Assembly: GCA_964355695.1 (NCBI GenBank)
Contig: CAYHFB010000001.1
Coordinates: forward strand, 1 to 40,152
DNA from: an uncultured candidatus Brocadiaceae bacterium
Lineage (GTDB): Bacteria; Planctomycetota; Brocadiia; Brocadiales; Brocadiaceae
DNA length: 40,152 bases
Direction of reading: 5' to 3'
Below are positions 1,202-27,800 of the stretch, in pieces. The first letter of the stretch is position 1. The number at the start of each line of letters is the position of its first letter. The notes under the pieces were generated by a model. It had not been told where the DNA came from. It ran no database searches and worked only from the letters and a program-made list of their open reading frames with translations. A program made the position numbers and the translations under genes.

Positions 1202-3001
1202 TTATACGGCTGTTAGTAAAAAGTAATATTCAGTTCCATTAATCCAAATCCTTTGTTTATGTGTAGAAGCTACTGCAATTCCAGATTCAGGAGCTTGTTC
1301 TAAGTATAAGCCAAGCGTAGCATTAGCACTACCTGCACTACTGTCTTTTGCAAATATTTGAATAGTATCAGCTGGGGCGGTTGTTGGAGCTGTACCTATT
1401 TTAGTTGCAAATGTATTAGTTCCTGATGTACCTATTGTTGCTGCTCCTAAAAATAAATTTGCAACATTATCCCCTCTAAATTTACTAATTCCATTAATTT
1501 GATAATTGTAAATGTCCCCACTATACCCACTTGCAGCATTTACCGCTAATACTGTACCTGATGAGCTACCTGTAAAGAACCCTGCTGTAGCTCCATCAAA
1601 AGCACCTGAACCAAGAGATACTAATCCATAGTTAGCAGAGGCTGTAGGGGCTACATTTACTAACACTCTACCTGCTGCAACATCTATTGCCCTAAAATCT
1701 GCCGCCGCTGTTAATGTTGGATTGATATATAGCCCACGACTGATACCATTTGCTCCGCCTGTTTGGTTGATGGTTGGTTTTATAACCGTTGAATTAAATA
1801 CAGCAGTTCCGCTTGTAGGTTTGAAATTAACAACATTTTGAAACCCATTTACTGTTCCGCTTGTATTTGTATATCCATTACCAAAGTTATTAAATTGAGT
1901 TAAACTGATTTGTACACCTTCTGTATATGAATTAGCACTTTCTATTTGAACACCACTACCTGATTTATTAAAACCTCCAGCACCACCAGAAAGTTGGAAT
2001 CCAGCATCATAATTAGCTGTAATTCCTCCTTTATTTGTCAATTCTCCATATTCATCTTGTTTTAAATATACAACCCCTCCTTTTTGAAGGTTTATTAATT
2101 CCGAACTACTACCAGAAGCTAAGTTCCCTGCTATTAAAGTACCTGCGGCTGCACCTGTAAAAAATCCGCTTGTAACTCCATCAAATGCTCCTGAACCAAG
2201 AGATACTAATCCTGAGTTGGGGGTCGAAGTTGGGGCTACTCCTATATGAAGTGTTGATAGAGGTGAAGTTGTTCCAATACCCACATTGCCAGTAAAATAA
2301 CTATTCAACGAATTATATGTAGTACCGAAGCGAGCCACTAATCCCTGCTCATTAATGATATTCATTCCCCAATACATTCTAAATGCAGTCCCAGGATTAG
2401 TCCCATCGTTGTAACTATTTGATAAATAAGTTGAGTTATCACCCAGATATAGTTTCGCAACATCCCCACTTGACCAAGTTGCGTCAGGTTTAATTAACAC
2501 AGTTCCAACAACTTCAAACTTTTCACTCGGACTCGCTGTCCCTATCCCCACATTCCCATTATTAAGAATCCGCATAGCTTCGGTTGCACCATTATTTCCA
2601 ACATTGAAAATAATATCTGCACCAGTAGCACCTACACCAGAAGTAGGTTGTAATATTAATGTTGAAGTTGTGCCTGTACCACCTATTATTTTAGGAACGG
2701 TTGCCCCTGTTATAAACGTTGGACTGGTCTGCATTGCCACCACCGTTCCGGTTCCTGTTATCGTGTATTCCCCAAGCGTTCCGGCGTTGTTATACAATAT
2801 CCGTGTAGTTGCTCCGCTTGCTATTGCGGTTGTTCCAATTGTTAATGGCGACGACAGCAAGTCGCTTATATTGGCAAATGATATTAACTTATTCTGATTG
2901 GCTGGTAATGCCTCATCAGGGTCTAAGAATAATAACTTTGCCACTAAGGGGTCAACTCCCGACCCGTCTGATGTATTTTTTGAACTCCAAGGTGCTCCCA
3001 T
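1202..3001 (-). CDS. Gly/Thr/Ser-rich tail fibre-like protein with internal repeats
   Basis: 599 aa. It contains repeated GNVGIGTASP / GNVGIGTTSP motifs and a duplicated ~45-aa block: APTSTPNSGLVSLGSGAFDGVTSGFFTGAAAGTLIAGNLASGSS versus APTASANYGLVSLGSGAFDGATAGFFTGSSSGTVLAVNAASGYS. The composition is beta-rich and low-complexity, as is typical of phage fibres. Confidence 0.75.
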   Translation of the reverse strand: MGAPWSSKNTSDGSGVDPLVAKLLFLDPDEALPANQNKLISFANISDLLSSPLTIGTTAIASGATTRILYNNAGTLGEYTITGTGTVVAMQTSPTFITGATVPKIIGGTGTTSTLILQPTSGVGATGADIIFNVGNNGATEAMRILNNGNVGIGTASPSEKFEVVGTVLIKPDATWSSGDVAKLYLGDNSTYLSNSYNDGTNPGTAFRMYWGMNIINEQGLVARFGTTYNSLNSYFTGNVGIGTTSPLSTLHIGVAPTSTPNSGLVSLGSGAFDGVTSGFFTGAAAGTLIAGNLASGSSSELINLQKGGVVYLKQDEYGELTNKGGITANYDAGFQLSGGAGGFNKSGSGVQIESANSYTEGVQISLTQFNNFGNGYTNTSGTVNGFQNVVNFKPTSGTAVFNSTVIKPTINQTGGANGISRGLYINPTLTAAADFRAIDVAAGRVLVNVAPTASANYGLVSLGSGAFDGATAGFFTGSSSGTVLAVNAASGYSGDIYNYQINGISKFRGDNVANLFLGAATIGTSGTNTFATKIGTAPTTAPADTIQIFAKDSSAGSANATLGLYLEQAPESGIAVASTHKQRIWINGTEYYFLLTAV

Positions 3002-3013
3002 TTTTATTTATAA

Positions 3014-3148
3014 TTAAGTTTCATAATCCATTTCTACTCCATTTTCAAATTCCATATTAACAAGGTTCTCAAAGGACATAGCATTTGCTCCGCCACCGCC
3101 ACCAGCTATTATGTTGTTCCAAATGTATATACCTATAGTCACTTGCAT
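3014..3148 (-). CDS. Possible small ORF (44 aa) filling the gap between two fibre-module genes
   Basis: Below the ORF-track size cut-off. My translation is MQVTIGIYIWNNIIAGGGGGANAMSFENLVNMEFENGVEMDYET, then TAA at 3014-3016. It is the only same-strand ORF in the 153-nt gap 3002-3154. There is no other support. Confidence 0.25.
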   Translation of the reverse strand: MQVTIGIYIWNNIIAGGGGGANAMSFENLVNMEFENGVEMDYET

Positions 3149-3154
3149 TTCATA

Positions 3155-3625
3155 TTACCAATTTGCATTTACTAAACTTGCTGTAGTTCCCGTTGACCAG
3201 ATTTTAATAACCTGAACGGGCAAAAAGAATCCCGCTGACAACCCAGGATACGTAGAATCATCACCGCCTGCTGTTGTAACCCTGACATCCCCCGCTCCTC
3301 CAATAGATAATATACACCCATCGTTACTCAGTCCATCGTAAACCACATAGTCCTCCGGTGCATAAGTAAAAATATCGGCATTTAAAGTTAGCGTTGTTTC
3401 GCTATCTACCGATACCACAAGGGCTGTTTCTTGCCCTGTGGTGTTATAGACAATATCTCCCTGTTTTACCCCGTCTGTTATAAATGTTGCCCCCGAATCA
3501 ACGAGTTTATTCGCTGTTACAGACGTGCTTTCCCCCGAAGATACTTCCGCAGGGAAAGGAATATTTGAATTGTCCGAAGGGATCACTCTTAACGAACGAC
3601 TTACTTGTAATTTTTGAGATGCCAT
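3155..3625 (-). CDS. Virion or tail-associated protein. It carries a ~58-aa module that also occurs in the protein encoded at 30534..31472.
   Basis: 156-aa ORF whose start shares one base with the upstream stop. Residues 39-96 (NKLVDSGATFITDGVKQGDIVYNTTGQETALVVSVDSETTLTLNADIFTYAPEDYVVY) align at about 55% identity with residues 125-182 of the 312-aa protein. Confidence 0.65.
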   Translation of the reverse strand: MASQKLQVSRSLRVIPSDNSNIPFPAEVSSGESTSVTANKLVDSGATFITDGVKQGDIVYNTTGQETALVVSVDSETTLTLNADIFTYAPEDYVVYDGLSNDGCILSIGGAGDVRVTTAGGDDSTYPGLSAGFFLPVQVIKIWSTGTTASLVNANW

Positions 3626-3831
3626 TAGTTTATGTTTTTATATGGAAATTTTGTATTTAAAAGTTCTTTGCGCTCCTCACAGTTACATGGACTATCTAAC
3701 GCCTTTGCTATTTTATCAACAACAAACTTAATGCCCGTTGCTTTGGTGAATTTCTCAATCGTATCTCCTAATCCGCGAGAAGGAACTACTTTGTGAACAC
3801 CTGGTGCAATATATTGTAGTGTTTCGGTCAT
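3625..3831 (-). CDS. small conserved-looking protein (GLGD...TGI...CxC...R..LLN pattern), function unknown
   Basis: 68-aa ORF with a one-base overlap to its neighbour at each end, which suggests translational coupling. Confidence 0.55.
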   Translation of the reverse strand: MTETLQYIAPGVHKVVPSRGLGDTIEKFTKATGIKFVVDKIAKALDSPCNCEERKELLNTKFPYKNIN

Positions 3832-4628
3832 TATACGTTCCGGCCTAATGTTGTGTTAAAGGCAGTTACAGCTACCCAGTAATTATATATTTCACCTGCC
3901 GTTAAAGCGTCACCTAAAAACATAAAGGCTCTTCGTGTATCTTGAAATTGTATTGGCGTATCGCTACCATCGTTCATTGCACCAAAATAAAAATTTTTAG
4001 TATTTGCTGCAATACTTGACATTGTTTTAGTTCCCGCCTGACCGTCGAGACCAGTATAATAATTCATAGTGGTGCTGTTTATACGTGAAACTATTTTAAA
4101 CCCTAAAATCCCTGATACGGCCACTGCGCTTAATGTTGCAGATGAACCAATCATAAAACTCATGTCTCCATTATTGTCAAAAGGAGCTAAGAAGAAATTT
4201 TGAATACCCGCAAAAGCACCCTCTCTCGCCAGTATTTGCGATGTGTTTTCGTTATAATAAACCCCCGTACTTGCACTGTCTACCGCCAAACTTACGCTTT
4301 GTTTAAGAAAAGAATTTGCATATGCCGTTGTTCCGTCAGGCTCTGCTCCTGAACTGTTATGTATCCATGAACCACCCCAAACAAGTCTAAATGCCGCATC
4401 TAAATCGCGAGGGTCTTTTAAGTTCCACTTATGCTTTGTAGCTGTTCCCCCCAATAGAGGATATACTGCCTTCATTTTTGACCAGATATTATACTCTTTA
4501 AGCGACTTAGTAAGCGTATTAACCGCTTCTTTTTGGGTTTCGTCGGTTATTTCAGCCGCAGAAATATACGCGAGGGCATCGCTATCCCAATACCCCAAAG
4601 TCATTCCCATTGCTCTTCTTACACTCAT
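3831..4628 (-). CDS. hypothetical tail-fibre-module protein
   Basis: 265-aa ORF with an ATGA overlap to the upstream gene. It sits between two fibre-like genes. I recognise no catalytic motif. Confidence 0.65.
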   Translation of the reverse strand: MSVRRAMGMTLGYWDSDALAYISAAEITDETQKEAVNTLTKSLKEYNIWSKMKAVYPLLGGTATKHKWNLKDPRDLDAAFRLVWGGSWIHNSSGAEPDGTTAYANSFLKQSVSLAVDSASTGVYYNENTSQILAREGAFAGIQNFFLAPFDNNGDMSFMIGSSATLSAVAVSGILGFKIVSRINSTTMNYYTGLDGQAGTKTMSSIAANTKNFYFGAMNDGSDTPIQFQDTRRAFMFLGDALTAGEIYNYWVAVTAFNTTLGRNV

Positions 4629-5705: not shown

Positions 5706-5962
5706 AACACCAATACAATATCCCGATAAGAACAAATGGTAACTGTTTTTTGTTCTAATATCATGGAAAAACTATTGGTCTTGTCAAAAAGAACAATATC
5801 GCCTTTTTTTACTTTATCTATTTCATCGCCTACAGCTAAGACTTCTGCCTTATGGTATCGCATGGCAGACATATCATCACCGGAAAGAACTAAGCCTGAT
5901 GAAGTTTTGACTTCTTCGATTATGGCACTTAAAAGAATATATTTTGCTATTGGTTTACTCAT
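5702..5962 (-). CDS. groES: GroES/Cpn10-like co-chaperonin
   Basis: I use the ATG at 5960-5962 (MSKPIAKYILL...), which forms an ATGA overlap with the GroEL stop; the ORF-track start at 6022 lies inside GroEL. 86 aa. The pattern is Cpn10-like: IAKYILLSAIIEEVKTSSGLVLSGDD...KAEVLAVGDEIDKVKKGDIVLF, with a mobile-loop-like G-L-V-L-S-G. Confidence 0.75.
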   Translation of the reverse strand: MSKPIAKYILLSAIIEEVKTSSGLVLSGDDMSAMRYHKAEVLAVGDEIDKVKKGDIVLFDKTNSFSMILEQKTVTICSYRDIVLVF

Positions 5963-7548
5963 GATGCCCTTGCTATGGTTACGGCTACACTTGTACTTAA
6001 TATCGTGCATGCAACTGCACATGCGTTTTGTAACGCTACCCGTGTTACTTTCATCGGGTCTGCTACTCCCATTTCGATAAGGTTTCCATATTGGCCTGTT
6101 TTTACGTTGTAGCCATGTCCGAACACATCCTTGCGATTGCCGTAAATATCAACCACACTCAAATCGGCATTTGCCAATACCTGAACAAGCGGAACTTTTA
6201 TTGCTGAAAGAACTATATCAAGTGCAATAGAATATTCCTTGCTCGTGTCGCTTTCAGGAGGATATTGTAGGTCTATTTCAAACAATGCTTTCCCGGCACC
6301 ACTCACTACTCCTTCTTCCAAGGCACTTTTTACAGCGCAGACAGCATCCTCGACCCGGTCATATATCTCCTTTTGCTCTAAATCGGTATTGCCCCCTACA
6401 TAAATAACCCCTATGCCACCAATTAATCCGGCAATCCTTTCATTGATAAAATCCTTGTCTGCTTTTTTATTGGTTATTTCTTGTGAGTTTTTTAATTCAC
6501 CTATCCTTTGATTGAGTTTTCCTTTATCTCCACTACCCGAAACTATTACAGTTTTATTTTTGCCTACAATCACTTTTGCGGCAAGTCCTAAATCAGTCAT
6601 TGTAATATGGCTTAAATCATCCCCCGTTTTTTCAGAGAAATAAGTCGCCCCTACACTCAGGGCAATATCTTCCATCAACTCATGTGATTTATAACCGAAA
6701 CTTGGAGGAGTAATAACACATGCCGATATGTTTCCTTTCATTACATTGCCGGCTAAAGTGTTCACCAAATTAGTATGACAAGGAGCGATAATTAGCAGTT
6801 TCTTTTTGTTTGAGATAATATCTTTAAGGATAGTTTCTATTTGTAGGATATTGGATATTTCACCATCACAAACCAATATATTTACATTCTCCATAACACA
6901 TTCGTCTTTCTCTCTATTGTTTATAAACATCGGAGAAGAATACCCTCTGTCAATTTTTAATCCGTTGGTTACATCGGAATATGTTTCGCTGCTTAAAGAC
7001 TTTTCTACCGTGACTATTCCGTCCTTACCAACACCTTTGTAAGCCTCTGCAATTATTTTTCCTATCGAATCGTCCCCGTTGGAAGAAATTGTTGCTACAT
7101 CTAAAATAATGTTTTCATCGCAGGGAATAGACTTTTCCCTGAGTTTTTCGACTACCGTTTCAACAATTTGTGTCATGTATCGAAGCACCTGAGTTTTGTT
7201 GATTCCTTCGGTTATACGCTTGTTTCCTTCAAGTATTAATGCTTCTGCAAGAACGATTGAAGTTGATGTGCCATCGCCAGCACTTGTAGCGGTGCGTTCG
7301 GCTGCTTCCAAAAGAATTCTGCAAGCAAGGTTCTCAACAGGGTCATTCAGAGAAATAGACTTTGCGACAGTAAAACCGTCCTTGGTATTTGTAAACCCAT
7401 GTGTTTGCAAAGGAGATTCTAACAGACACGTTCTGCCGTATGGACCAAGAGTAGAGGCCACCGCCTTACTCATTACAGAAACACCTCTCATTAAGGATTC
7501 GCGGCACTCTTCGCCAAATAGTAGTTCTTTAATTAGTTCTTGATTCAT
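5959..7548 (-). CDS. groEL: GroEL/Cpn60-family chaperonin
   Basis: 529 aa. The N-terminus aligns by eye with bacterial GroEL: LGPYGRTCLLE...TKDGFTVAKSISLNDPVENL...AGDGTSTSIVLAEAL, compared with LGPKGRNVVL...TKDGVSVAREIEL...AGDGTTTATVLAQA. The C-terminal equatorial region includes GVVSGAG. There is no C-terminal Gly-Gly-Met repeat; the protein ends ...VAVTIARAS. Confidence 0.93.
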   Translation of the reverse strand: MNQELIKELLFGEECRESLMRGVSVMSKAVASTLGPYGRTCLLESPLQTHGFTNTKDGFTVAKSISLNDPVENLACRILLEAAERTATSAGDGTSTSIVLAEALILEGNKRITEGINKTQVLRYMTQIVETVVEKLREKSIPCDENIILDVATISSNGDDSIGKIIAEAYKGVGKDGIVTVEKSLSSETYSDVTNGLKIDRGYSSPMFINNREKDECVMENVNILVCDGEISNILQIETILKDIISNKKKLLIIAPCHTNLVNTLAGNVMKGNISACVITPPSFGYKSHELMEDIALSVGATYFSEKTGDDLSHITMTDLGLAAKVIVGKNKTVIVSGSGDKGKLNQRIGELKNSQEITNKKADKDFINERIAGLIGGIGVIYVGGNTDLEQKEIYDRVEDAVCAVKSALEEGVVSGAGKALFEIDLQYPPESDTSKEYSIALDIVLSAIKVPLVQVLANADLSVVDIYGNRKDVFGHGYNVKTGQYGNLIEMGVADPMKVTRVALQNACAVACTILSTSVAVTIARAS

Positions 7549-7760: not shown

Positions 7761-10700
7761 TCAATTCCCGTACGCCCTTTTTTTGATTGCGTCCAACTTT
7801 TCTTTACGTTCTTTTTTAAGCTGCTTCAATCTTTCTCTATGAGGGTTGTCTCCGTATTTTAATTCATATAAAGCAGGGTTTAGTTGTTTTATGAATTCTT
7901 TGTCGGGAGAAGAAGAAGTGGTTTCTTTTTTATTTGTGCCCTCCTCTGCATTAATATATTCAACCATGCCGCTCTTAAACCACCCGTCAATAAAATCTTC
8001 TGCTTTTGGGGTTTTGCTTCTTTGCTCTGATCCAGAAATGCCACGATATATACTTTCAATATCGCGCGACATTCTCCATGGTAAAGGGGTGTTGAATTGA
8101 CTTCCAATGGCCTTACCTACTTTTGCCCCGCCTTTACCTTTATCTATCTCGTCTAAGCCTTTTATTAGGTTAGCTGCATCGTCATAAGCCGGAACTTTGT
8201 TGAATGTGGAGGCCAAATAATACGCAAGTTCATCATTTTCTAATGCTGTCGCTACAATAACCCATTCGGCAATGCCAAGATTTGCGTATTTTTTTGCCCA
8301 TGGATTTTTCTGTAACCATTCGTCATAATCATCGTCTGCCCCCGTAGCTTTAAATGCGATATATGTAAGCATTGAAGCTATGCCACCAAAAAGCATCCGT
8401 GCGTTTACGGCTCTGCTTTTCAGTCTATTTGTAAGATTGTTTTCTAAGGTCCTGCTATTCGCCTCGTCCGATAGGTCTATTTTTTTTGGCTGTGCTATAT
8501 TATAGAGGGCAGATATAAAATCAATTCCCGCTTTTTGAGCTTTTAAAACTGTCCAGTTAGTACCTCCTCCAACAAACGGATTCAAAATATTCCGTGTTCC
8601 GATTTGCATTATTGTGTACCATACCGCACTCCCCCATTCTTTATTTTTAGTAGCCTGTTTTAAGTTTGTTTCTATGCGACTATTTCCTGCCGTTAAAAAG
8701 GCTGAAATTGGATTATTAGCTTCATGCCCCATGTCATAACCTGCACTTGTATAAGCTGATTCATAAGCAGCCTTTAATTGCTTGGTCGTTACTTTGCCGT
8801 GCTGTAATAATGCTTGTCGGACAATATCGTTTGCCAACCTGTCAATGCTTTGTTGATTATCGGGAACTATTTGGGTTTTGCCATTGATTTTATCAATGGT
8901 TTCTTTTGCTAATACTTGTGCATCGGTAAAGTTTTGGCCTGTGAGTGTTTCCGAAATATAGCTTATTGCATCCCGCTTAGTCATTGCTCCGTTAGGATTA
9001 CTTGGGTGCGTTAAAATACGTGTTAAGTTCTGAACAAAATACATATCTGTAAGTAGTGATTTATACATAGCGTCCATAGCCTCCAAATGTCCACGTCCGA
9101 TTAACTCCGACATGATAGTATGATACAACTTACTGTCAGATTGCTTATTTATGTAGTCATCTAATTCGCCCTTGGTAATAAATGCCGAATTTGTTTCGCC
9201 AAAAAATGTAGCCCCATTCTGATAAATGTCCTTCATAATAGTTGTCATCATTTTTCGCCTGTGCTTCCTTAGTTCGGGAGAGCCTAACCCTTTTGCTAAC
9301 ATCGCTTGCAATGTGCTAATAGACGCTTGTGTTAACCCTGACAAAGGGTTTTCTATTCTTTGCTTGACAGTATTTAGCATCATCCTATTTGATACCTCCC
9401 AATATGCTTGCACAAACTTAGCAACCCTTAACTTGCCGGCTCCCTTTTGGTTTTTTAATTCCTCGTTTAGCGTTATCCTTATTTTGTTTTTAATTTCATT
9501 TATTCCGTGTTTTAGATTAAATGGATCTATTCTGCTTTCTCCAATTTTTGCACTATACAATTCTGATAACCCGCGAGCCAACTCTTTTAGTTTAAAAAAT
9601 GTTCCTTGACTAACATCGCTAATTCCCAATAGCTTATTAATAAGATAATCATAGGAATCAGGGTTTTGCTCAAACAGCCCGTAATTATACATTTCAGCTA
9701 ATCTCTGTGCGGCAGTTTTTTGATCTGCTGTTAATTTTTTTTGATTTCCCTTGTTTAATTCATTTGCCGATTTTTCAATAATAGACTGTCGCAAGCTATT
9801 GTATTCTTTCTGCAAAGCATCTGACATCCGCGCAATTTCACCATCGCTATATCCTTTGTCTTTAAGATAATTGGTTACATTGGCTTCTATGTTTTCGATA
9901 CTACCTTCTTCGCCTGCCAGCTTCTTCCAGTCAAGAATTGTTCGCTTTTCTTTCCCTGTTTTAGTTGTTACGGTTATTTCCCTTCCGAATCCTGCTTCGA
10001 TAAGTGCATCTTTTACTAACTTGCTTTTTATAGGGTCAATTTCATTTAATACTGCTAACCTTGCTTTCTTTTCCGCTTTAAGGGATTCTATTTGTGTGGT
10101 TGATAGGGGGTTCTTTTTACCTTCCGATTCGGCACGTTTCCCGTCATTTATTTGCTTGTCAATTTTTTCAATTTCATTTGTAAGTCGAGTTACAATAGCT
10201 TTTTCTGATTTGTCAATATCAGGGTCAATTTCATTTAATACTGCTAACCTTGCTTTCTTTTCGACCTGTAAACTTTTTAGTTCATCGTCTGCAACATCCT
10301 CTTTCCTTGCTATTAATTCACGCTTTTTGTTTTCGATTTGCTCGTTGATGTCATCAATGCTTTTCTTTATTCTTTCTTTCCTGTCTTGTAATCGTTGCTC
10401 TGGTGTTTTGGGTGTGTTTTGAGATTCGATTTCATTAAAGAAGTCAATGGCAGCCTGTTTGTTTTTTGCTTTCATTTCACCTTTTTCTACTAACTCTGAG
10501 ATAGTAGATTCTATGCTATTCCCTTGTTCTAATCCCTTTGCAACCTTTTCTGCTATTGCATCACGTTTTGCACTTTCAAAAATCAGGTCATACTTTTTGG
10601 CTACCTTTTTTCTATTTCCCTCCCGTATTCTATTAGCTTTTTCCTTAACTTCATCAGGAACATTGTTTATTTCAAACTCTTCTGCTTCCTTGTTTATTGA

Positions 10701-13700
10701 GTTTATATCTGATTCAACCGATTTTACAGTTTTTTTCCTTTGTGTAGCTTCGGAAGATGTAAACATTTCTTCCGTAACTTCGGTTATATCATATCCTACC
10801 CGTGCCATTTGTCGCAAAATACCATACCCGGTTGCAATGGCAGCAGCCCTCTGTTGTTTTGTAGAAATATCCCTTACTAATTTAAGTTGTTTTTCTAAGG
10901 TTAATTTATTTGATGGATTTTGTGCTATTTGGCGTTCTAAGTCCAATTCGAGAGAAATAAGAATCAAAGACCTTGTGTCTATATCCTTTGCCTGCACGTT
11001 TTCATCAAGGTACGCAAGTAGTTTGCTTACATAGTCGCTTCCAAATTCTACTTTGGCTGCTTCCACAACATCGAAACCGTGCTGTATCGCATCTAACCGA
11101 ACTGTGCGCTGATATTCTTTTTCTTCGGAGGTAAGTTCTCGCTTTGTTTCGCGTTCTATATTATTTAGGGTTTCTCTTATTTCGTCCGATTTAATATCTT
11201 TATTAACAAGTGAGGCAAAAGTATCAGTAACTTTTTCAACTATCGGCTCTGGCGAAACAGGCTTCGAAGCGGCTTCTTCCTCAATATTATTCGCCTTGTT
11301 AAACAAATCTTCAAGGTCTTTGTCGGTAACTCTGTTAAGATATTTTCCTGACACTCTCCGCATCTCGGCAATAAACGCTTGTACGCCTTTTCTTGCATAC
11401 CCTATGGCAATTTTACTCATTGCCGCAATCACTTCGGCAGGGATAGTGGTAATGTCGTACAGCTTGCCACCTTTACCTGTGATTAAATCTTTAAGTTGCT
11501 TCTTGCCTTGTGCTATTTGTTGGTCGGGGGTTAAGCCTTTTACCGATTCTCCCAAAGTTACTTTTGATTTGTCAAATACAACAAGCATACCTTCATCAAC
11601 ATCCCCGCTTAAATATGCCGAATCATACCCTTTGTCTTTTAAGTTAGCTGTTACTTCCTCTGCAAGATACTTCCCAAACCCATTAGCGTATGCCACTTCA
11701 AGACCTGCATCATCTAAACTTTTAGCTTCGGCAAATTCAGGATAATCGTTTATTTCAGGATTATCTTTGGCAAACTTTTCTTTTGCTCCTTGCAATGCTT
11801 CGTTTTGAAGAGTTATAAGTTCATCTGCGTTTTTTAATTGGTATGGGTTTTCAATGTCAACGGTAACAGACTTTACATCTTTTGCCATGTCAGCATATCT
11901 GTTTACGGCTTCGGTAGAAATAAATGTTCCTGCCATTTCGTTGTTACCCATGCCTGTTCCTATCGTACGGGTAAGTGGCTTGGATTTAATTTCGGAAATT
12001 AGCTTGCCTTTTTTCGTTGGCTCATTAACAATGTTAGTTCCTTTTGGTTCATTTGCTATGTTATTAATTTGTTCTTTTAATGCTTCTTCAACTTTTGCCC
12101 GTTTAAATTCAGGAAACATCCATGCTTTTTGATTATTGTTCCACGTTCCCCCAAGTTCTTTAATTTTGTCTTTTATTGCAAAAGTATCGCCGCGTACAAC
12201 AAATGCTTTTTCGGAGATGCTTTCTAATTGAACTCCTTTTGGTTTTTCGGGTTTAACTTCTCTTTCCTGTTTAGCCTCAGCTAATCCTTCTGCGGATTCT
12301 TTTATCTTCTGCCTGTCCACTTCTGACAATTCCCGACCTGCAACAATGCTTCTGATCGTTTCCTGTTTTTCGTCAGACCGCTTCTTCCGGTTTGCATCTG
12401 CCATATTCCCCTCAAAGAAATACGAGTTAATCTTTGCAGAGCTTTGAGTATTCCTTCTGCTTACCCTTCCGTAAAGTTGCTCGGTTTTGTTCCCGGAATA
12501 TTCACTTGTGGCAATATGCATTACCCTTGGCTTATCTCCAACCACATCATCTAAATTAATGCCTGTGCCGCCACTCTTAGTAGTCATAAGAACTACATCG
12601 GCTTTGCCTTGTTGGAATTTTTCGTTTTCTTTTATGCCCCCGTAAATTCGGGCAACAGAGATTCCTTCCCCAACAAGTCTTTTTGCAAGTTGGTGGAGCA
12701 ATGTTTCTTCTGCGGCTATTCCTTTTTCGTAAAACCCGTATTTACTGTCTTTTGTTCCGGCCTTGATAACATGTTTGCCTGAAAATTGAGCCACAACAAT
12801 ACTTTTCTTTCCTTCGGCTAAATCCTTTTTAACAGCATCGTACATTGTCTGTACTTTATCCTGTTCGTTTATCTTATCAAGATTGGCTAACTGAGCTTTG
12901 CGTTCTTCATATTTGAACTTATCAACGGCTTCTTTTGCCATACTGTAATATTGACCTGTTCCTGCCTCATAGTCTTTTTTGATTTTGTCGAATAACCCAT
13001 TAAACGCAAGTTTATTCCCTAAATCAGCTTTAAATGCACCAAACTCACCACCCTCTCTTTTCGGTGAAAGCATCGAGTTTACAATCCTACCAATGGCAAT
13101 ATTGTCAGCATTATCCAATCTGTTTGAATGTATTAAATCAATTTCATTGACTTGTTTTTTTGCCTTATCAGACATTTGAACCTGTTTGGCCTCCATTTCT
13201 CCATAGAAAGGATATTCACGCCTTAAAATACCTCCACCTTTTACCACCTCGCCTCTCAAAGCATCGGTCTTTTCGTAGTAGTCTTTCGGCCCCGTTGATG
13301 TTTTGGCGACAGCGTACATTTCACCATCCTTGCCTTTATGGTATTCAATATCTACACCTACTTCTTTCTGAATTTCTTTCGGTGTTCTGCCTGTTAGTTG
13401 AGAAAAAAAGAATATAGAATGTTCAATTTTATCATATGGAGTAGCAGTAGCAAATACATTGTGCTTTGACTCTACTTTTGATTGCTGAATTGACCTTGCA
13501 GCCATCGGGTTTTTAAGATTATGCGCTTCATCATATATAGCTACACCATAATCCCCCTTACCAATTTTACCTGCTGTCAAATCATAGTATGTTCCTATTT
13601 CCCATTTATCTGTATCAGAAATATCTATTCCTAATGCTTTGGCATCTTTGGCAAATGAATCATCTATGATTGCTTGGCTTTCGGTAACTATAAGAGTTTT

Positions 13701-16700
13701 TTTGCCCGTTTTTTTCTGCATTTCTGCGCCCATAACGAGTTGTTCTCTTGTTTTGCCTACACCAGCACCATCAGCAAGTAAAAATGCCTTGTGGCCGTTG
13801 TCAAAGCGGTCTATTGCAACATTAGCACCGAAACGCTGTGTTTCGTCAATGTCGTACTTCCCGGCTACAACATGCTCTTTTTTTGGAGTTGGTAGATTTG
13901 CTTCATCTGCAATTCTAATCGGGGGTCTTCGTCCGCCCGTTCCTCCACTTGCTCCAATAGGGGTTTGTCCGCCCTGAATATTTTGTGCTGCTCCCTTTTC
14001 GGGTACTTGTCCATTATATCCTGTGGAAGATGGATCGAATCTGTTAATTTCTGTGTCATTTGATATTGATGTTAAAACTTCTGTTGATAATATATTATTT
14101 GCCTTGAAATGTTTGAAGGCTTCCTTTAAATAAGGTATCCATTCATTCATTCCCTTTTCAGCAAGGTATTTTGCTATGTCTTCAATTTTATAATAACCTA
14201 CTTTAACTAATCTTCCTACAATCTCCGAAAGTTTATCTATTTTAGATAAACCGCCAACTGTAAAATCGGGTTTACCTAAGTCACCTAATAGGTCGTCTAT
14301 GGCATCAAGTTCAGCCTTTATTTTTTCGGTGTTACGTTCAAAGACAATTTTATCTTTTGGGGTTTCTCCAATCAGTTTGTCTGCTTCTTGGATTGGCTTT
14401 TCGACACCACTTTCAGGAACGTCTCCTTGCTTTTCGGCTTCATTGCGGATAAGATTAGCGATAACTTTAGGGCTTCCTTTGAGTTTCTTGTCGAGATACC
14501 GCCCAATGATGTCTGACTTGTCTGTCTGTTTGCCTGCAAAGAGGTCAAATTTTCCTGCTTCTTCATTGTATGAATTTATAAATTGTTTAAAACTTTCTTC
14601 CTTCCCTAATGCCATAGCAACTGCCAATTCTGATGCCGTTACATTCTTTTCAACAAGCAAATCTTCCTGTATGGCATATGCTTCTAATGTCTGCCCGTAA
14701 TTTCTTGCTTCCTGATTCATTTCAATAGCCCTCTCAACTTCATTTTGAAGGCTATTATCTCCCATTGCCCTATTTTTTATTAATGGAACTAAGGCTGCCA
14801 ATAATTTATTCTTAATGTCTCCATTGCCTTCTAATCCAAGCGTCCTGATAGCTTTTTCACTTAAAGCAGAACCTAACATCAATGACTTTAAAAATTCTAC
14901 ACCTTCTTTGGTTGCAACCAATCTTGATACATCAAAATATCGTGGCATTTCAGCAGAAACAAGTATTTTGTTGTCAAGAAACAGCTTCATTATTTCTTTG
15001 ACCTTCGACGGAGTACTTGTAACGTCACTCATGTTTTCAGCATTGCCAAAAATCAAAAACAAACTTTCCCGTACAGGATCTGTGATAGTTTTGCTAACTT
15101 CAATTGCCCTGTCAATAGGGGATTTTTCCTTTTTCTCTGTTACATTAAACTTTTTAAAAGTTTCGGTGGTGTAAGGCATATCGGTATCTGTTTCAAATAC
15201 CAGCATTGGATTTTTAACAGTATCAATTTCGTTGGGGTCAATACCATATGCTTCTGCGTTCTCCTTTAATGCTGCTAAATATTTAGCATCTGTACCATTT
15301 TTAGCAGCAAGTTTCCTTGACATTGTGCGGTTGTTCCCGTCTAAAACTATTCCATCTTTAGAAACGACTGGTGTTTGGTCAATGGCCTTATCATTGAGTT
15401 CTCCGGCTATTTTAATTACTTCTGATTGTGCGTTTTTGTCTTGCTTGTAATCCCTGTCGTTTGGAGTTGTTCCATCTTCCCGTACAGGGAAACCAACTGT
15501 TTGAGAAAACGTTTCTTCGTTGTGTGAAGCCAATACATCATCTGCCGAAACAACTTTGTACCGTCCTGTTATTTCTTCTCCATTGGCTATCGTCTTTGTT
15601 CGCTTCCGTCCTACAAGTTGGTTTTTCCCTTCTTTATAATTTTGCGTACCTACTTCTCTTTTCTTGATTTCTTCAAGTTCCTTTTCGGCCTTTTCTTTCA
15701 AAGCCTTTTTTTCGGCAATTTCTTTTGACCTTTGTTTTCGCTTTTCTTCGGTTGGCTTGTTATAGATAAACTGGAACTTACCTTCTGTTGTTTTTTCGGC
15801 ATATCCTAATCTAACCAACCTCTCCCAAAACGGTTTTCCTGCACTATCTGATAGTCTTTCAGACGACCTAAGAGGGTATCCTGTTTTTTCAATACTCTCT
15901 TTGTTTATTTTAATATAAAAATCCGTGCCAATCCCTTGTCTTTGAAGTCCCATTGGAACGATTGCCATGTGTATTATATATCCGTCTTTATTAGGTTCAA
16001 CAGAAAATACAGAATCATCGCCCCATCCTTTTATTTTATACGATATTATTTTAACACCATCCACTATCCGTTCTCCCGACATCTCAATCTCTGGCAACAC
16101 TTCGGCTTCTTTTTGGGTTTCTTTTGGTGTTTCTGCTTTGGGTGTTTCTTTGAGGGATTGTAATTTATGATCAACTGCCTGATTTATTTCTGGCCGCAAC
16201 CCCCCCGGCAATCCTTTTGCCGCTTCTGAAATATCGTTTAATTCTGTTTTGTCTGTACTTACATCTGCAACCGCCCTAAGAATATCCTTCTTCCTCATGG
16301 CATCCTTGGTTTCATTAAACTCTTTGCGCCATGTACCTTTACCTTTACCATCTGCAACCTGCGTAGGATTATTTTTTAACCCATGTTCCGCATCGGCTAT
16401 ATATTTTTTATATTCATCACTATTGTATATTTCATCCAACGCCTTTTTTCTTTCGGCATCATTTTCAATTAAGCTGGCTTTATTAATTTTATTTTCAATC
16501 ACATCTCCCCCTACACCAACACTAACCTTTTCTACTGATTCGGTCTGTTCAGTCTTTGTTTCGGTATCAGTTTTCTTGTTGACTGGCTTAACATCTGCTG
16601 TAACGTCTGTAGCCTTTGTAGTCGGCTTAACAACATCAGTTTCAATTGGTCTTTCGGTCTTAGGTTTTTCATCTAATTGTTCTTTAATTTTGTTTAAAAT

Positions 16701-23112: not shown

Positions 23113-23919
23113 TTATACTTTCGGGAATGATACCATTGTTTCTGAAGAAATCACGAATAACTCTATTTTGGAAGTGCTATTATTTTCAAGCTCTATGGTG
23201 CAAAAGTGGCCCGCCAGCCCTTGGCTCTCTGCCGTTGTGTTTTTCATAAACAGCATAAAATCAGTTTGATTTGTTGGTACACTTCCTCCTGTAACAGTCG
23301 TATTAACCTCTATATAATTATCTCCGTTTGGGTAATCCTGAACCACATTTGTAATTAATCCGCATAACACAGGTGTTGTATAAGGTGGAACGGCAAAGTA
23401 CAAGTAATCTCCAACGCTTATAATAGAACCAATTGAAATTAGCGGACTGATAGAAAACTCGATATGTGTTGCTGCCGCTGCACCTGTAACTGCCAAACTC
23501 CTTCCTATTCCACTCAAACTTCTCAACGCATACTCGTCAGGTGAAGCAGGCACAACGGATCTATTTCTTATAAATGCAAAGTAACTCGCTTCTTTTAAAG
23601 CAAACCAAGCACTCTCTATAAAAAACCCTTCCTGTAAATCCGTGTATAAATCGGTTACATCCCATGGGCTATCTCCTATCAAAACAATCGTTTTGAAAAG
23701 TTTGCTGTCCAAAGGGTTTTCATTGAATACTGTCTTTATAGTACTTGGATATTGAACTCCGTAATATTTGTTTCGGGTCTCATTCGTGTTGTGCCTGTAA
23801 AGGTTTCCTCCTTTGAAGGTATAAAAATAGTTATTCATGCCAATCATCATATCGGGTTGATATGAGTAGAAAGAAGGCCATCCTTGTATTGGCGGTGAAA
23901 AAGTTAGTGTCGCTTCCAT
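23113..23919 (-). CDS. hypothetical virion/tail structural protein
   Basis: 268-aa ORF in the tail module. It is beta-rich (GWPSFYSYQPDMMIGMNNYFYTFKGGNLYRHN...). I recognise no catalytic motif. Confidence 0.65.
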   Translation of the reverse strand: MEATLTFSPPIQGWPSFYSYQPDMMIGMNNYFYTFKGGNLYRHNTNETRNKYYGVQYPSTIKTVFNENPLDSKLFKTIVLIGDSPWDVTDLYTDLQEGFFIESAWFALKEASYFAFIRNRSVVPASPDEYALRSLSGIGRSLAVTGAAAATHIEFSISPLISIGSIISVGDYLYFAVPPYTTPVLCGLITNVVQDYPNGDNYIEVNTTVTGGSVPTNQTDFMLFMKNTTAESQGLAGHFCTIELENNSTSKIELFVISSETMVSFPKV

Positions 23920-23930
23920 TTATTTATCTA

Positions 23931-24860
23931 TTAACAAGTTCCGAATTCTACAATTATTCCGTTTGCTACTCTATACCAATTATACGGATTAGGCAAAACG
24001 GTAGAACAAAAATAAAACCCATCTGGCAAAATATTTTGTCCGTTTACGTCTGAAAAAACCCAATCATATAATCCTAAATCACCACCGGGAGTTCCGTTTA
24101 CGTTTGCAACATAATACGTTGTCATCCCAACCACCATTCCGCATGCACCTGCTTCGTCCGCATATCGTATGCTGCTATCAAAACTTGTCAGCGCAGCAGG
24201 ACAATAAACTTCTACTCCAAATTCAGGAGAAGGGCAAGCGCAAATAACACTTATATTCACCACAGATGGTGAAATTACAGTTTTCGGTATTACCATAACA
24301 CAGTTTCCTGGGTCTGCTATAGTTAGATTAAGTTGCGATGCTCCTATCGTGATTAAATCCGTATCCCCTGTTACCAAGTCAAAGTTAGTTCCATTATACC
24401 GATATACTTGTAAAGTGTAAGGGCTGTCCGCTACCAATCCGCAGTCCAAATAATAATCTCCTATATAATTAGCAAGCCCTGATGGTGCGGCCAAATAACC
24501 ATATACAGGTGAACTTACCTTGTTGTAAGCAACGCTGTTAAATTCTGCTACTACTCCTATTGGGTTTGTAAACGCATCAAACTTTAATATTACCGCTCCC
24601 GTTCCCGTTCCTAAATCAATACTTATTTTAAAAATACCTTCGTCATATCCAAGGTGTGTTATGGGTACTCCGCATAGGTATCCGCAATTTGCACACGAAG
24701 CGGCTGGTTGCAATACACCGTTTAATAATTGCCTTACAACACTATCGGCCTGATAATATCCATCTACAGAAACTTGTGTCAAGGCGGCATCCATATAAAT
24801 TGCCGTTGCTGAATCTAAATCAACCGAATTAAGATAATATGTATATGTTTTTGCTGCCAT
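23931..24860 (-). CDS. Cys-rich hypothetical structural protein; receptor-binding or tail accessory candidate
   Basis: 309 aa with 11 Cys. The N-terminal and C-terminal ~50 aa follow a similar pattern, ...Y.D..L....DG(Y/F)Y............NG.......C. It sits 4 nt downstream of the 1,586-aa gene. Confidence 0.65.
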   Translation of the reverse strand: MAAKTYTYYLNSVDLDSATAIYMDAALTQVSVDGYYQADSVVRQLLNGVLQPAASCANCGYLCGVPITHLGYDEGIFKISIDLGTGTGAVILKFDAFTNPIGVVAEFNSVAYNKVSSPVYGYLAAPSGLANYIGDYYLDCGLVADSPYTLQVYRYNGTNFDLVTGDTDLITIGASQLNLTIADPGNCVMVIPKTVISPSVVNISVICACPSPEFGVEVYCPAALTSFDSSIRYADEAGACGMVVGMTTYYVANVNGTPGGDLGLYDWVFSDVNGQNILPDGFYFCSTVLPNPYNWYRVANGIIVEFGTC

Positions 24861-24864
24861 TTTC

Positions 24865-27800
24865 TTACGGACACCCGTTTACGTCAAATCTCATAGTTAC
24901 AATACCGCTATTTATGATTGGTATTACCGAAACACAGAAAAAATAAACTCCCGGTGTAAATGTGTTTAATATCGGACTACCACCGCAAGGCGTGTAATCT
25001 ATCTCTGCGGTTTCTGTTATTACTATTTCAAAATACCAACATTCACCAACAAAATTATCACAACCACAGGCACTTATTGTCTGAATAGTACCACCTCCTG
25101 TCTCAAAGAATGGAATATAATCACTATCAGAACACAAGAAGTATCCCTGATATGCCGCTACTGTTAAACTTAATATTTCTCCTGTATAGCAGTCTTTATA
25201 ACTTACTGTTCCTGCGCCACTTGATATAAAATACTCATTACATTCTGTCAAACATGCTTCACACTCACAACAAGCCTCTACAGAAGATACAGAATAACAG
25301 AGTGGTACACCAAGCGAAGTTCTGTAATCCCAAATAAGATACATATAACTTCCTCCTCCCGGCATGGTGAATTCAGCATAATTATTTGTTCCGCCCCCTT
25401 GATTCGGAGTGGCTACATTTGCAACTGCCAATAACGCTGCAATATCAGTTGGGGTATTTGCATAAAGCGTATTTGACCTTAAATATAGGAATCTGTCTTT
25501 TGATGTGTCGAAATTATAGGTATCAAAATCAAAGTTATTGCAAATCATTCTTACGATTGAACCTACCGTTGGAACATTTCCTGTACCGACATATCCATTT
25601 GTTTGGGTATATTGAGAAACCAATGGATTGTCTGTGCCTGACGCAAAAGCAACCAAGGTTGAAGTTGTAGGCGAAATATATGTTCCATCAATATAATTGT
25701 ATTGATTGTGAACAAAATCCCCTGCGTCTGAATCGTTGGTAACGCCAACTTGTATCATCATTAATTCTACCTGAACAGGACAACCTGCCGTTACCTCCAA
25801 GCGAATATCACCTGTAGAAATTATAGTTATTGTAAGCGTTTCTACAAACTGCAAATCTTTATTAATAATTACTAACCCGTCATCTGAAACCGAACCTGAT
25901 GATGTGTCCGTTCCGTTATACGATACTATTACTTCAAAAGGAGTTCCCGTTGGTGTAACTATCCATGAAATTACTGTTTCACCAACTGCCTGTCCTACAT
26001 CAACACAATAGTCTATATCTTCATATCCATACACATTGAATGTTTGTGACATTCCGCAAGCGATACATTGCTCTTCTACAGGAAGTGAAATGTCATTTGT
26101 TGTCAGAACATACTCATTCATGTAAGGGTCGTATCCTCCTAATTTCTGTGTATTGAAATCGGTTATGAACATATCTCTGAACCATGTTCTCATTCCAAAC
26201 TCTGAAATAACTGTTAAGGCTTCGTTGTAAGAACTTCCTCTTAATTGGAGAACTGCACCTCTTTTTGCGTCTGTAAAAAAGGTATCATATCCCCAAACTG
26301 TATAACTTTCAGGGCTTGAACTTATGCCAAATTTTTCTATTCGTGCTATTTGTGTTCCGAGAATTTCGGGAATAGATGTAATTGCCCCGCCTGCCGCTGC
26401 ATCACTTAATAGGTTTTTCCCTGCTAATACATACGATACTTTGTCTTCCTGTAATACTCGAATATCTGTTTCTCTGCCGTCAATAATTTGTATAGGGCCA
26501 AATGAACTTTCTAATGGCTTGTAGTTGACCAAACCAAGATTAAATTCATTTAGCTTGTTTATATTCGATTCATCGTTGTAAACTCCGCTATATGTTAAAT
26601 CTGCAAATCTGTTCGCTTCTTTATAGTCTTGTGCCGAAACCGATGTTACCCTGTTTCCAAAGTTGAATGTTTGTCCTGATACAGAATCACGTATCTTGTA
26701 GCTTTCCGCTCCGTTGCCAAAACAAAAACAGTTATAAAACCCTGTATCTATTATTGCAGGAGTGGAAGTGTAAAAACTTTGGTCTTGAACATTCCCTTGA
26801 TGGTCTCCGTCAATTATCGCAAAAGATAAATCGTTTTCAAAGAATACGTCAGGTAAGGCGTTTGAAGGTTCGGTTTCAAAGATTAACATGTTCTCAGCTC
26901 GGAAAACTTCAATATTTACCCATATTCTTGATGCCTTGTTTACCGTATTTCCGCACGACCTTACACCATTAACGGCTAAATATATTTGACCTGATGGCAC
27001 ATATTCCTGAAACTGAAAATGCCCATCTAAGTTACAGTCCAATAAGTTTGTATAAGGATATAGTCCCGGAATAAAATAATTGATAACATTTCCTGTCCCT
27101 GTATTTAGAGTTGATGCAATATTTTCTCCATCCCACCACTCCATAAAACCATCATAAGTTTGAGGCGATACAAATACTCTGTCGTAGGTATATTTTCTTT
27201 CTTCGCAAGCCGACCCAATACTTGTACCGTTACGCTCAAATCTAAAAAACAAATGTATTTTGCTGCCTGCTGGAATATTATAGTCATATACCCCAGGCGA
27301 TGTTTCTATATTTACAGGATAGTAAACAACAGGACATTGATTCTCATTCCGCTGTGACTCATACCTCTGCCCCGGTGCTATGACATCGGTATCTGTATTT
27401 ACAGCAGCAAAACTGTTCGGGTTGATTTTCATATAAACGCCAGCAGGAACGGTAAAGTTTCCATCAGGATTTATGAAACCAGATTTTTTAACTTCCTTTT
27501 CCAACACCGTTGCATAGGCGCAATTCTGTACTGGGCCTGATGAATCTGCCTTAACTATCAACCTATCTCCTACTTCTACCTTTTGAGCGTTTTCTCCTTC
27601 CAATAAAAAGTAAACAGAATTTGTATCAGGGTCATCAAAATAAATGCTCGTATAAACGGTTTCATAGTTTTCTTGGTCAGCTTTTATTACAAATTTATAT
27701 CGTGTAGCCCAAGCAGGCGCAATGTTATCATACGGAATAGTAACCTGAATAGAATTCTTCAAAGCAGAGTTTCCACATGGAACATGTACGTTGTTACTTG

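Follow-up and report, generated by a model that had tools for sequence, protein, structure and literature searches.

The stretch of DNA analysed here, referred to as the window (40,152 nucleotides; contig CAYHFB010000001.1 of assembly GCA_964355695.1, filed under an uncultured candidatus Brocadiaceae bacterium), is the late region of a podophage, and the last and largest gene of its virion module encodes a giant protein of 3,936 amino acids (aa). An earlier note, made from the sequence alone, had singled out positions 12417-15563 within this gene as a ParB/sulfiredoxin (Srx)-like module plus an SNF2-type helicase, regarded as an incomplete core of the DarB type that acts on DNA at entry. We find that the giant combines a ddrB-ParB domain, an SNF2 ATPase and an ART-PolyVal-like domain in one open reading frame (ORF) of the late operon and is thus a polyvalent protein as this class is defined. 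The assignment to the polyvalent/anti-restriction proteins proposed earlier is supported by these multiple effector domains and by relatives that carry LPD38, RadC and ART-PolyVal domains. On balance, we consider it probable that the giant is a cargo protein that is ejected together with the DNA and acts on DNA without modifying it. The relevant parts of the giant are as follows.

7761-19571, minus strand: single giant ORF, 3,936 aa, 0 cysteines (ORF list and translation)
14412-15674, minus strand: full DdrB-like module, aa ~1300-1720, i.e. ParB core plus helical extension (homologue alignment)
15198-15584, minus strand: DdrB-like ParB/Srx core domain, aa 1330-1458 (Pfam PF18763)
13932-14360, minus strand: conserved helical domain before the helicase, aa ~1738-1880 (start of the homology in other giants)
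12312-13904, minus strand: SWI2/SNF2-type ATPase core of superfamily 2 (SF2), leaning towards Strawberry-notch, aa ~1890-2420 (Pfam, PDB profile, AlphaFold2 and Foldseek)
12072-12209, minus strand: small DUF5710-like domain after the helicase, aa ~2455-2500 (weak match to Pfam PF18974)

Positions 12417-15563 of the minus strand correspond to aa 1337-2385 of the giant ORF, which is uninterrupted and in which residue n begins at nucleotide 19571-3(n-1). All motif strings quoted in the earlier note were located in this ORF at the positions given for them. Both units are, however, wider than proposed there, as the ParB module covers aa ~1300-1720 and the helicase unit, including the N-terminal helical and the C-terminal DUF5710-like domain, aa ~1738-2500. 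ParB and helicase families are the only Pfam families found in the giant, searched as whole protein and as ten overlapping fragments.

Judging from its profile matches and conserved residues, the ParB module is a genuine member of the DdrB-like ParB domains, in line with the ParB/Srx-superfamily domain predicted earlier. The ddrB-ParB family (PF18763; curated Pfam cut-off 27.6 bits) matches the whole protein with 48.6 bits and the excised fragment with 52.1 bits (E 9e-14), and the core contains the stretches KVVSADDVLASHNEE (aa 1339-1353), NDRDY (aa 1371-1375) and KDGIVLDGNNRTMSRKLAAKNG (aa 1405-1426). A search of 5.8 billion proteins yielded 41 homologues of the module, all of which contain PF18763. 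As they align across aa ~1300-1720 of the giant (30-49% identity), the conserved unit consists of a ParB core of ~130 aa and a helical extension of ~270 aa; other Pfam families present in these homologues are PF18760, PF18798, PF18809, PF18812 and PF18796. The invariant columns of the ParB alignment are S1349, H1350, N1371, D1372, Y1375, G1412, N1413, N1414, R1415 and Y1431. DdrB-ParB domains are marked by an active-site arginine following a core strand (GxxR) and by a lineage-specific helix with a conserved tyrosine (PMC5512222), and R1415 and Y1431 match this arginine and the tyrosine-bearing helix of the family definition by Iyer et al.

The similarity extends to the DdrB protein of phage P1. 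The hidden Markov model (HMM) of the module matches aa 27-389 of P1 DdrB with 85.7 bits, BLAST detects the relationship with E 2.6e-7, and hhalign aligns the ParB core with aa 27-194 of P1 DdrB (probability 96.6%, E 4.8e-10), placing G1412-N-N-R1415 and Y1431 of the giant on SGNGRTMG and ...YREYL of DdrB. Moreover, an AlphaFold2 model of the module (predicted local distance difference test, pLDDT, 82) retrieves phage proteins annotated as "DdrB-like domain-containing" and "large polyvalent protein associated" from BFVD, with E values from 4e-16 to 1e-9.

The same domain bears on the view that the giant is an intracellular protein of replication or partition that is not delivered by the virion, its ParB domain being a partition factor and its helicase serving replication or recombination. 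ParB proteins and SF2 helicases do such work in many replicons, but the giant lacks the GERRxR motif by which partition ParB proteins bind cytidine triphosphate (CTP) and reads GNNRTMS there, GNNR of the DdrB type standing where the CTPase motif would be. Neither ParBc nor a helix-turn-helix (HTH) domain is matched by Pfam in the fragments of the giant, a ParA-type ATPase was not found in any window ORF with 150 aa or more, and both domains lie inside a cysteine-free ORF of 3,936 aa that ends a late structural operon. We thus regard this explanation as very unlikely.

The second unit is an SF2 helicase with a large insert between its lobes, and here the earlier reading is borne out by Pfam, by the PDB profile and by AlphaFold2 and Foldseek. 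Motifs I (GAGVGKT, aa 1935-1941), II (DEAH, aa 2014-2017), III (TATP, aa 2042-2045), V (TKSGGTGINL, aa 2331-2340, with GGTGINL from 2334) and VI (QLYGRVSRR, aa 2365-2373) are intact in the giant and invariant in the homologue alignment, and from the position of motif I the Walker A lysine is K1940, as given in the earlier note. When the whole protein is scanned, all helicase Pfam profiles remain below threshold, including SNF2-rel_dom. On the excised fragment (aa 1881-2420) AAA_34 (28.9 bits, cut-off 27), Helicase_C (25.2 bits, cut-off 23.5) and ResIII (23.6 bits, cut-off 22.5) are above their cut-offs and SNF2-rel_dom is exactly at it (24.9 bits, cut-off 24.9).

A dedicated search gave 31 relatives of the helicase, mostly stand-alone proteins of 470-960 aa, and a 29-sequence helicase profile searched against the PDB sequences matched SWI2/SNF2 ATPases only (E down to 2.5e-13), among them 8qy7 (a "DEAD/DEAH box helicase" of 1,080 aa), Fft3, SNF2h, SsoRad54, INO80 and Chd1. 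Structure prediction does not point to a different fold: the AlphaFold model (pLDDT 86; predicted template modelling score, pTM, 0.81) shows two RecA-like lobes held apart by a mostly helical insert of ~285 aa, and all of the 50 top Foldseek matches in the PDB are SWI2/SNF2 remodellers (E 1e-17 to 1e-13; identity 12-17%), with Mot1 at the top and ISW1, CHD4, Rad54, CSB, INO80 and DDM1 among them. In a conservation set of 149 helicase homologues with 25-50% identity, D2014 and E2015 are kept in every sequence, Q2365, R2369 and R2372 in 147 each, and K1940 in 140, eight of the remaining nine being alignment gaps. As the catalytic residues are near-invariant across these homologues, the ATPase is under purifying selection.

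Within the SNF2-like ATPases, the AAA_34 match and the lobe-2 pattern GINLDD...PR...Q..GRVSRR lean to the Strawberry-notch branch. Neither Helicase_C_4 nor the Strawberry-notch-specific C-terminal winged HTH was found in the Pfam scans of the giant, Helicase_C_4 being recorded for more distant helicase homologues only. The flanking domains belong to the same unit. In other giants the helicase homology begins at aa ~1730-1780, and the helical domain, which ends in RPPIRIA...NLP, always precedes the helicase and is conserved across helicase-bearing giants. The DUF5710-like domain (KAFVVRGDTF...GGTWNNNQKAWMFP) is matched weakly by PF18974 (E 0.027), a family that is present in two stand-alone helicase homologues (P0060 and P0062), and in other giants, too, the helicase is followed by a conserved GGxW...W..P consensus. 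The closest stand-alone helicases (P0043 and P0042, on contigs L004 and L005) are encoded near the portal gene of phage contigs, next to a second large SNF2 protein, a protein with a weak S-AdoMet lyase Pfam match, a topoisomerase IB and an InPase with an encapsulated-ferritin-like domain. This neighbourhood looks like an unfused version of the polyvalent effector set.

No methyltransferase was detected alongside this helicase. The methylase families of Pfam are matched neither by the whole giant nor by its ten fragments, nor by any of the remaining window ORFs with 150 aa or more. LPD36, which in DarB-type dyads goes with the N6-adenine methyltransferase fused N-terminally to the helicase, has no Pfam match in the giant, and the motif [DNS]PP[YFW] does not occur in the giant ORF. 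As this motif search also misses P1 DarB itself, it is a weak screen, and the Pfam scans are the meaningful test; they confirm the absence of a visible methyltransferase claimed before. The same limit applies to the motif's absence from 75 of 76 helicase-bearing representatives and 70 of 74 viral loci (see below), P1 DarB being likewise without it. When 14 helicase-bearing relatives were scanned with Pfam, 13 had no methylase; the families found were AAA_34 (13 relatives), SNF2-rel_dom (12, best E 5e-10), ddrB-ParB (8), LPD38 (5), RadC (2), ART-PolyVal (1) and N6_N4_Mtase (1). The scans thus indicate that the helicase clade is methylase-free as a rule and not by loss.

These results bear directly on the "incomplete DarB" frame of the earlier note, according to which the giant would be a decayed DarB, i.e. 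a former methylase-helicase antirestriction protein now without its methylase and with partial function or none. P1 DarB is indeed a methylase-helicase of the virion, and hhalign aligns it weakly with the giant's helicase (51% probability, E 1.5e-4), although over 107 columns of lobe 2 only, i.e. around motifs V-VI. The HMM of the helicase clade, however, does not match P1 DarB at E values up to 10, the catalytic residues are strongly conserved, and with only ~180 aa between the ParB module and the helicase there is no room for a methylase remnant. As the methylase test and the test for helicase similarity both failed, the giant is not a member of the DarB family; the frame is not supported, given the missing HMM match to DarB and the methylase-free clade, and we give a decayed DarB hardly any credence. 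By contrast, the link to the P1 Dar system is real, but, as the profile and pairwise alignments indicate, it runs through DdrB and not through DarB.

That the giant is a virion protein is suggested by its surroundings. The genes of the window are ordered terminase, portal, capsid, more structural genes, a structural protein of ~1,500 aa and the giant. The capsid-type structural ORF (32396-33826) shares 60% identity with the corresponding protein of MW202828, 52% with that of Maribacter phage Panino and ~43% with those of the Flavobacterium "elemo" phages, and Cellulophaga phages of the Pervagoviridae match as well. A further ORF carries the C-terminal domain of the crassvirus muzzle, and two more regions of the giant itself become relevant here.

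23113-23919, minus strand: ORF with the crassvirus muzzle C-terminal domain (Pfam PF25729, 62 bits, E 7e-17, cut-off 27)
7764-11279, minus strand: C-terminal core of the giant, aa ~2765-3936 (homology to stand-alone proteins)
11547-12014, minus strand: ART-PolyVal-like ADP-ribosyltransferase (ART) domain of the giant, aa ~2520-2675 (Pfam PF18760 below cut-off, BLAST)

The crAss_MUZ_C ORF is a mark of the tail gatekeeper upstream of cargo genes, and the giant is best explained as a polyvalent cargo protein of a podophage with a crAss-like tail that infects Bacteroidota. In phage crAss001 the products of the genes that follow the muzzle gene are cargo proteins, which reside in the head and the tail and leave the virion in a partly unfolded state (PMC10172136). 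Related phages carry giant genes annotated as structural at the position of the giant in the window, e.g. gp101 of Cellulophaga phage phi38:1. The syntenic giants of MW202828, Panino and phi38:1 (L003:741-12320, L002:31774-37263 and L080:21710-26785) comprise 3,859, 1,829 and 1,691 aa with 1, 0 and 0 cysteines, respectively. The giant of the window contains no cysteine at all among its 3,936 residues, compared to 38 expected from the neighbouring ORFs (0.98%; P about 2e-17), and cysteine is likewise scarce in most of the helicase-bearing giants examined and in the proteins homologous to the C-terminal core. Such a depletion may be characteristic of proteins whose chain is threaded through the tail.

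In the window the muzzle protein is split into three ORFs (24865-29625, 23931-24860 and 23113-23919, minus strand), compared to one ORF of ~1,450 aa in L082 and L083. An ORF resembling NUMOD4/HNH/AP2 homing endonucleases (22274-23101, minus strand) follows directly after the split muzzle, and a similar split is seen in MW202828, the closest relative. Directly downstream of the giant lies a gene for a phage GroEL (Cpn60, E 2e-53; 5959-7548, minus strand), relatives also encoding GroEL or GroES. The phage GroEL might help to fold or refold the giant cargo protein.

The C-terminal core has 20 homologues (33-45% identity) that span aa ~2765-3873 of the giant and are whole stand-alone proteins of 1,000-1,600 aa, and the stand-alone core protein has no Pfam domain. 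Two contigs have the muzzle and a 301-aa structural protein in common with the window, and in both of them the gene for this core (L082:10001-14713 and L083:10001-14083) closes the virion operon behind that of the crAss_MUZ_C protein. As the core stands alone as the last operon gene in relatives, the giant can be understood as an exchangeable effector array fused before a conserved cargo core, which is presumed to be the vehicle for packaging and ejection. A core that serves as vehicle for all helicase giants is ruled out, since its HMM matches no other collected giant; for the same reason the combination found in the window is one mosaic among many of the ParB/helicase giants. The ART-PolyVal-like domain sits between the helicase and the C-terminal core. 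PF18760 matches it below threshold (17.2 bits), and BLAST connects it with the PF18760-annotated N-terminus of P0011 (E 1e-13). At the ExE motif, where the ART homologues read QEGELVVF, the giant reads DEGMLVVF, i.e. E2660-G-M2662 with a methionine for the second glutamate. As ExE thus reads E-G-M, the domain is probably inactive, and, by its sequence, the ADP-ribosyltransferase of the giant is probably catalytically dead.

Thus, based on these findings we infer that the giant is packaged, ejected and used against restriction, its position after the muzzle gene, the core fusion and the cysteine depletion giving indirect support. Exchangeable effector modules amounting to ~2,700 aa have been added to the N-terminus of the C-terminal core of ~1,170 aa, and the giant would be packaged in the head, threaded partly unfolded through the tail before or together with the genome and refolded in the cell, where its DNA-directed modules would then work on the incoming DNA. 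The ParB module may be an NTP (nucleoside triphosphate)-dependent unit for DNA binding or nicking, and the SNF2 motor may track along duplex DNA at the expense of ATP and strip or block host complexes of the restriction type. As no methylase is present, such protection would need to be mechanical, and the genome would be protected without methylation. The claim of the earlier note that the module acts at entry on DNA that it leaves unmodified is thus plausible in view of the gene position, the fused cargo core, the cysteine depletion and the P1 precedent.

RapA and Mot1 strip proteins from DNA, and a motor of this type could also be directed against the host. The giant would then be an effector of host takeover, whose modules act on the host chromosome and host proteins and shut the host down, with the ParB domain nicking or degrading host DNA or depleting NTP and the SNF2 motor stripping RNA polymerase or nucleoid proteins. 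Mot1, the top structural match of the helicase, removes protein from DNA, a domain of a host-modifying type (ART) adjoins the helicase, and Iyer et al. list degradation of host DNA and sensing or degradation of NTP among the activities considered for DdrB-ParB domains (PMC5512222). However, the ART domain has no second glutamate in ExE, P1 DdrB is tied genetically to protection from EcoB/EcoK and not to host shut-off, and the sequence makes no distinction between host and phage DNA as target. Host takeover is therefore a possible function of the modules, but in our opinion an unlikely one.

A third role of the motor would be the import of the genome itself. An SNF2 translocase that is tethered to the ejection channel via the core could reel the genome in with ATP, a mechanism that we rate as improbable, and we see just as little chance for its variant, in which the DdrB-type ParB clamps or nicks the leading DNA end. 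RNA polymerases drive genome entry in T7 and N4, and no DxDGD motif of the RNA-polymerase type is visible in the giant. Additionally, the translocase is intact and of the double-stranded-DNA type, it forms one chain with a conserved cargo core in a group of podophages, and its clade is widespread in giant ORFs of viral contigs of 40-70 kb. Nevertheless, the helicase also exists as a small stand-alone protein, and since MW202828, Panino and phi38:1, which have the same capsid and muzzle, encode helicase-free giants, the motor is not essential for entry in this group. If the idea were true, a widespread clade of cysteine-free giants would constitute a protein-delivered DNA import motor, analogous but unrelated to the polymerase-driven entry of T7 and N4, and the SNF2 motor would be no accessory of anti-restriction.

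The two modules are widely distributed. A HMMER search with aa 1300-2450 over 1.84 billion cluster representatives gave 2,539 matches at E values up to 0.001, 682 of them at up to 1e-30. Domains were tallied in the 133 best representatives, excluding the window's own protein, most of which are 2,000-6,000 aa long: the helicase is present in 76 of them and the ParB module in 72, both occurring in 15 of the 76 helicase-bearing proteins (in the order ParB before helicase in 14 of the 15). IMG/VR contains 74 helicase-bearing viral loci, mostly on contigs of 40-70 kb and with a median ORF length of 2,715 aa; five of them also have the ParB module, in four cases downstream of the helicase. Four IMG/VR contigs (L014, L016, L017 and L019) have the muzzle-type structural protein of the window, and all four encode a helicase giant, which in L017 starts ~2.3 kb downstream of the muzzle-type ORF. 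As ParB and helicase co-occur in only 7-20% of the giants and in either order, they are shuffled modules and no fixed pair. Of the earlier idea that they form one "module", the co-occurrence stands, but their unity is weakly supported.

The whole giant matches no PHROGs family, and BLAST searches against 50,697 phage records (nucleotide and protein) found no match for aa 1337-2385, none for the C-terminal 1,236 aa and only two short N-terminal matches for the N-terminal 1,300 aa. The ParB-helicase stretch is thus absent from the catalogued phages at the BLAST level.

Several points weigh against the proposed role in entry. As the two modules are no obligate pair, any joint action of ParB and helicase is speculative. 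Between the giant of the window and those at the same position in the closest cultured relatives there is hardly any sequence similarity, so that their "structural" status is transferred by gene position alone. DdrB-type ParB domains have no solved structure, and Foldseek found nothing significant for the 476-aa model of the ParB module in the PDB (best real protein SspE, probability 0.06), and both the ParB sequence profile and a single-sequence search with the ParB region retrieved from the PDB sequences only spurious designed-repeat matches, the profile finding no ParB; as no solved structure is matched significantly, the assignment of the ParB/Srx fold rests on the Pfam family. The helicase is without an experimentally characterised close relative, and PADLOC and NCBIfam scans of the modules gave weak matches of the ZorD, DpdE and SCO1167 types around single motifs, so that, as far as these scans indicate, it is not a member of a catalogued family of defence helicases. 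Finally, a methyltransferase gene may lie outside the 40-kb window.

The N-terminal part of the giant contains one more region of note.

17772-18614, minus strand: Gly/Ala-rich hydrophobic region, aa ~320-600 (hydropathy scan, composition in 100-aa blocks)

The hydrophobic stretches of the giant are confined to it (aa 411-439). P0096 and P0107, two further ParB-bearing giants, contain homologous sequence, and the region might be in contact with a membrane. At the very N-terminus (aa 1-42; 19446-19571, minus strand) the motif KYPxYKD occurs in tandem. It is shared by P0091 and by the DNA that immediately precedes the annotated start of the Panino giant gene (33711-33899 of the record; L002 ~31590-31780), and the Panino giant gene may thus start before its annotated position. 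A general packaging signal is ruled out for the KYPxY repeat, as only 4 of 211 large relatives contain it. A GNAT acetyltransferase, considered for QRQGIGT (aa 1210-1216; 15924-15944, minus strand), was rejected, as Pfam and the PDB sequences gave no support; the region is conserved in a few ParB-bearing homologues (P0010 and P0030). Likewise, a hidden virion RNA polymerase, considered by analogy to the crAss cargo, was rejected, since no DxDGD-type motif is present and D.D.D strings occur in low-information contexts only.

Host defences are thought to encounter polyvalent virion proteins before any other phage molecule, yet hardly any of these proteins has been studied outside P1. About half of the top representatives and 74 IMG/VR loci carry the helicase described here. 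In this large, so far unstudied clade an intact translocase of the SNF2 type is contained in giant cargo proteins, and as it has no methylase, the defining part of the DarB paradigm, any protection it confers must be mechanical, by translocation, displacement or end protection. The fusion of ParB and helicase is a Rosetta-stone hint that P1 DdrB may cooperate with a DNA motor, and the near-total absence of cysteine could, if general, serve as a search signature for ejected phage proteins in metagenomes. As cultured relatives exist on Cellulophaga, Flavobacterium and Maribacter hosts, the system is experimentally tractable. To the extent of the literature covered, a methylase-free SNF2-like clade in giant cargo proteins, its fusion to a core behind a crAss-type muzzle and the cysteine-free signature are not described.

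The giant can be compared with several known systems. Iyer et al. (2017) described DdrB-ParB, SWI2/SNF2 and ART as hub domains of polyvalent proteins and proposed that these proteins are delivered during invasion (PMC5512222). The giant resembles them in uniting unrelated effector domains in one chain, in sharing their hub domains and in being encoded by a late virion gene. It differs in that the SF2 helicase of this survey sits in a methylase-helicase dyad, in that the survey's main hub is the MPTase zincin, whereas the giant ORF contains neither an HExxH motif nor any peptidase Pfam match, and in that a conserved cargo core, encoded behind a crAss-type muzzle gene, is joined to its array. 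P1 ejects its Dar proteins, DdrB and DarB among them, along with the DNA, and they confer protection from type I restriction-modification; DdrB itself is a head-internal protein, and defence against EcoB/EcoK requires it as well as DarB and Ulx (PMC12810830). ParB core and helical extension of the giant are homologous to aa 27-389 of DdrB (23-24% identity), but P1 DdrB is a separate protein of 995 aa with a C-terminal metallopeptidase and is proteolytically processed, whereas the module of the giant is internal to the chain, which has no peptidase.

Bcep22-like podophages have a DarB-like protein of ~4,500 aa, which was detected in the virion by mass spectrometry (PMC9144972). The giant shares with the P1 DarB and Bcep22-type proteins that they are very large, virion-associated SF2-helicase proteins at the end of a podophage morphogenesis module, but these contain an N6-adenine methylase, which the giant lacks, there is no similarity at the BLAST level and the helicase HMM misses DarB. 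The SWI2/SNF2 and Strawberry-notch ATPases (Mot1, ISWI, Rad54, RapA, ZorD) have the same two-lobe SF2 core with helical inserts and intact motifs, although at 12-17% identity, and the giant is without their accessory domains, its motor being part of a phage cargo protein. The cargo proteins gp45-gp50 of crAss001 (Bayfield et al. 2023, PMC10172136), finally, correspond to the giant in gene position after the muzzle and in their very large size, and they are expected to leave through the tail partly unfolded, a route that the cysteine depletion of the giant fits. However, the crAss cargo includes a virion RNA polymerase, whereas the giant, which has no DxDGD motif, carries ParB, SNF2 and ART modules instead.

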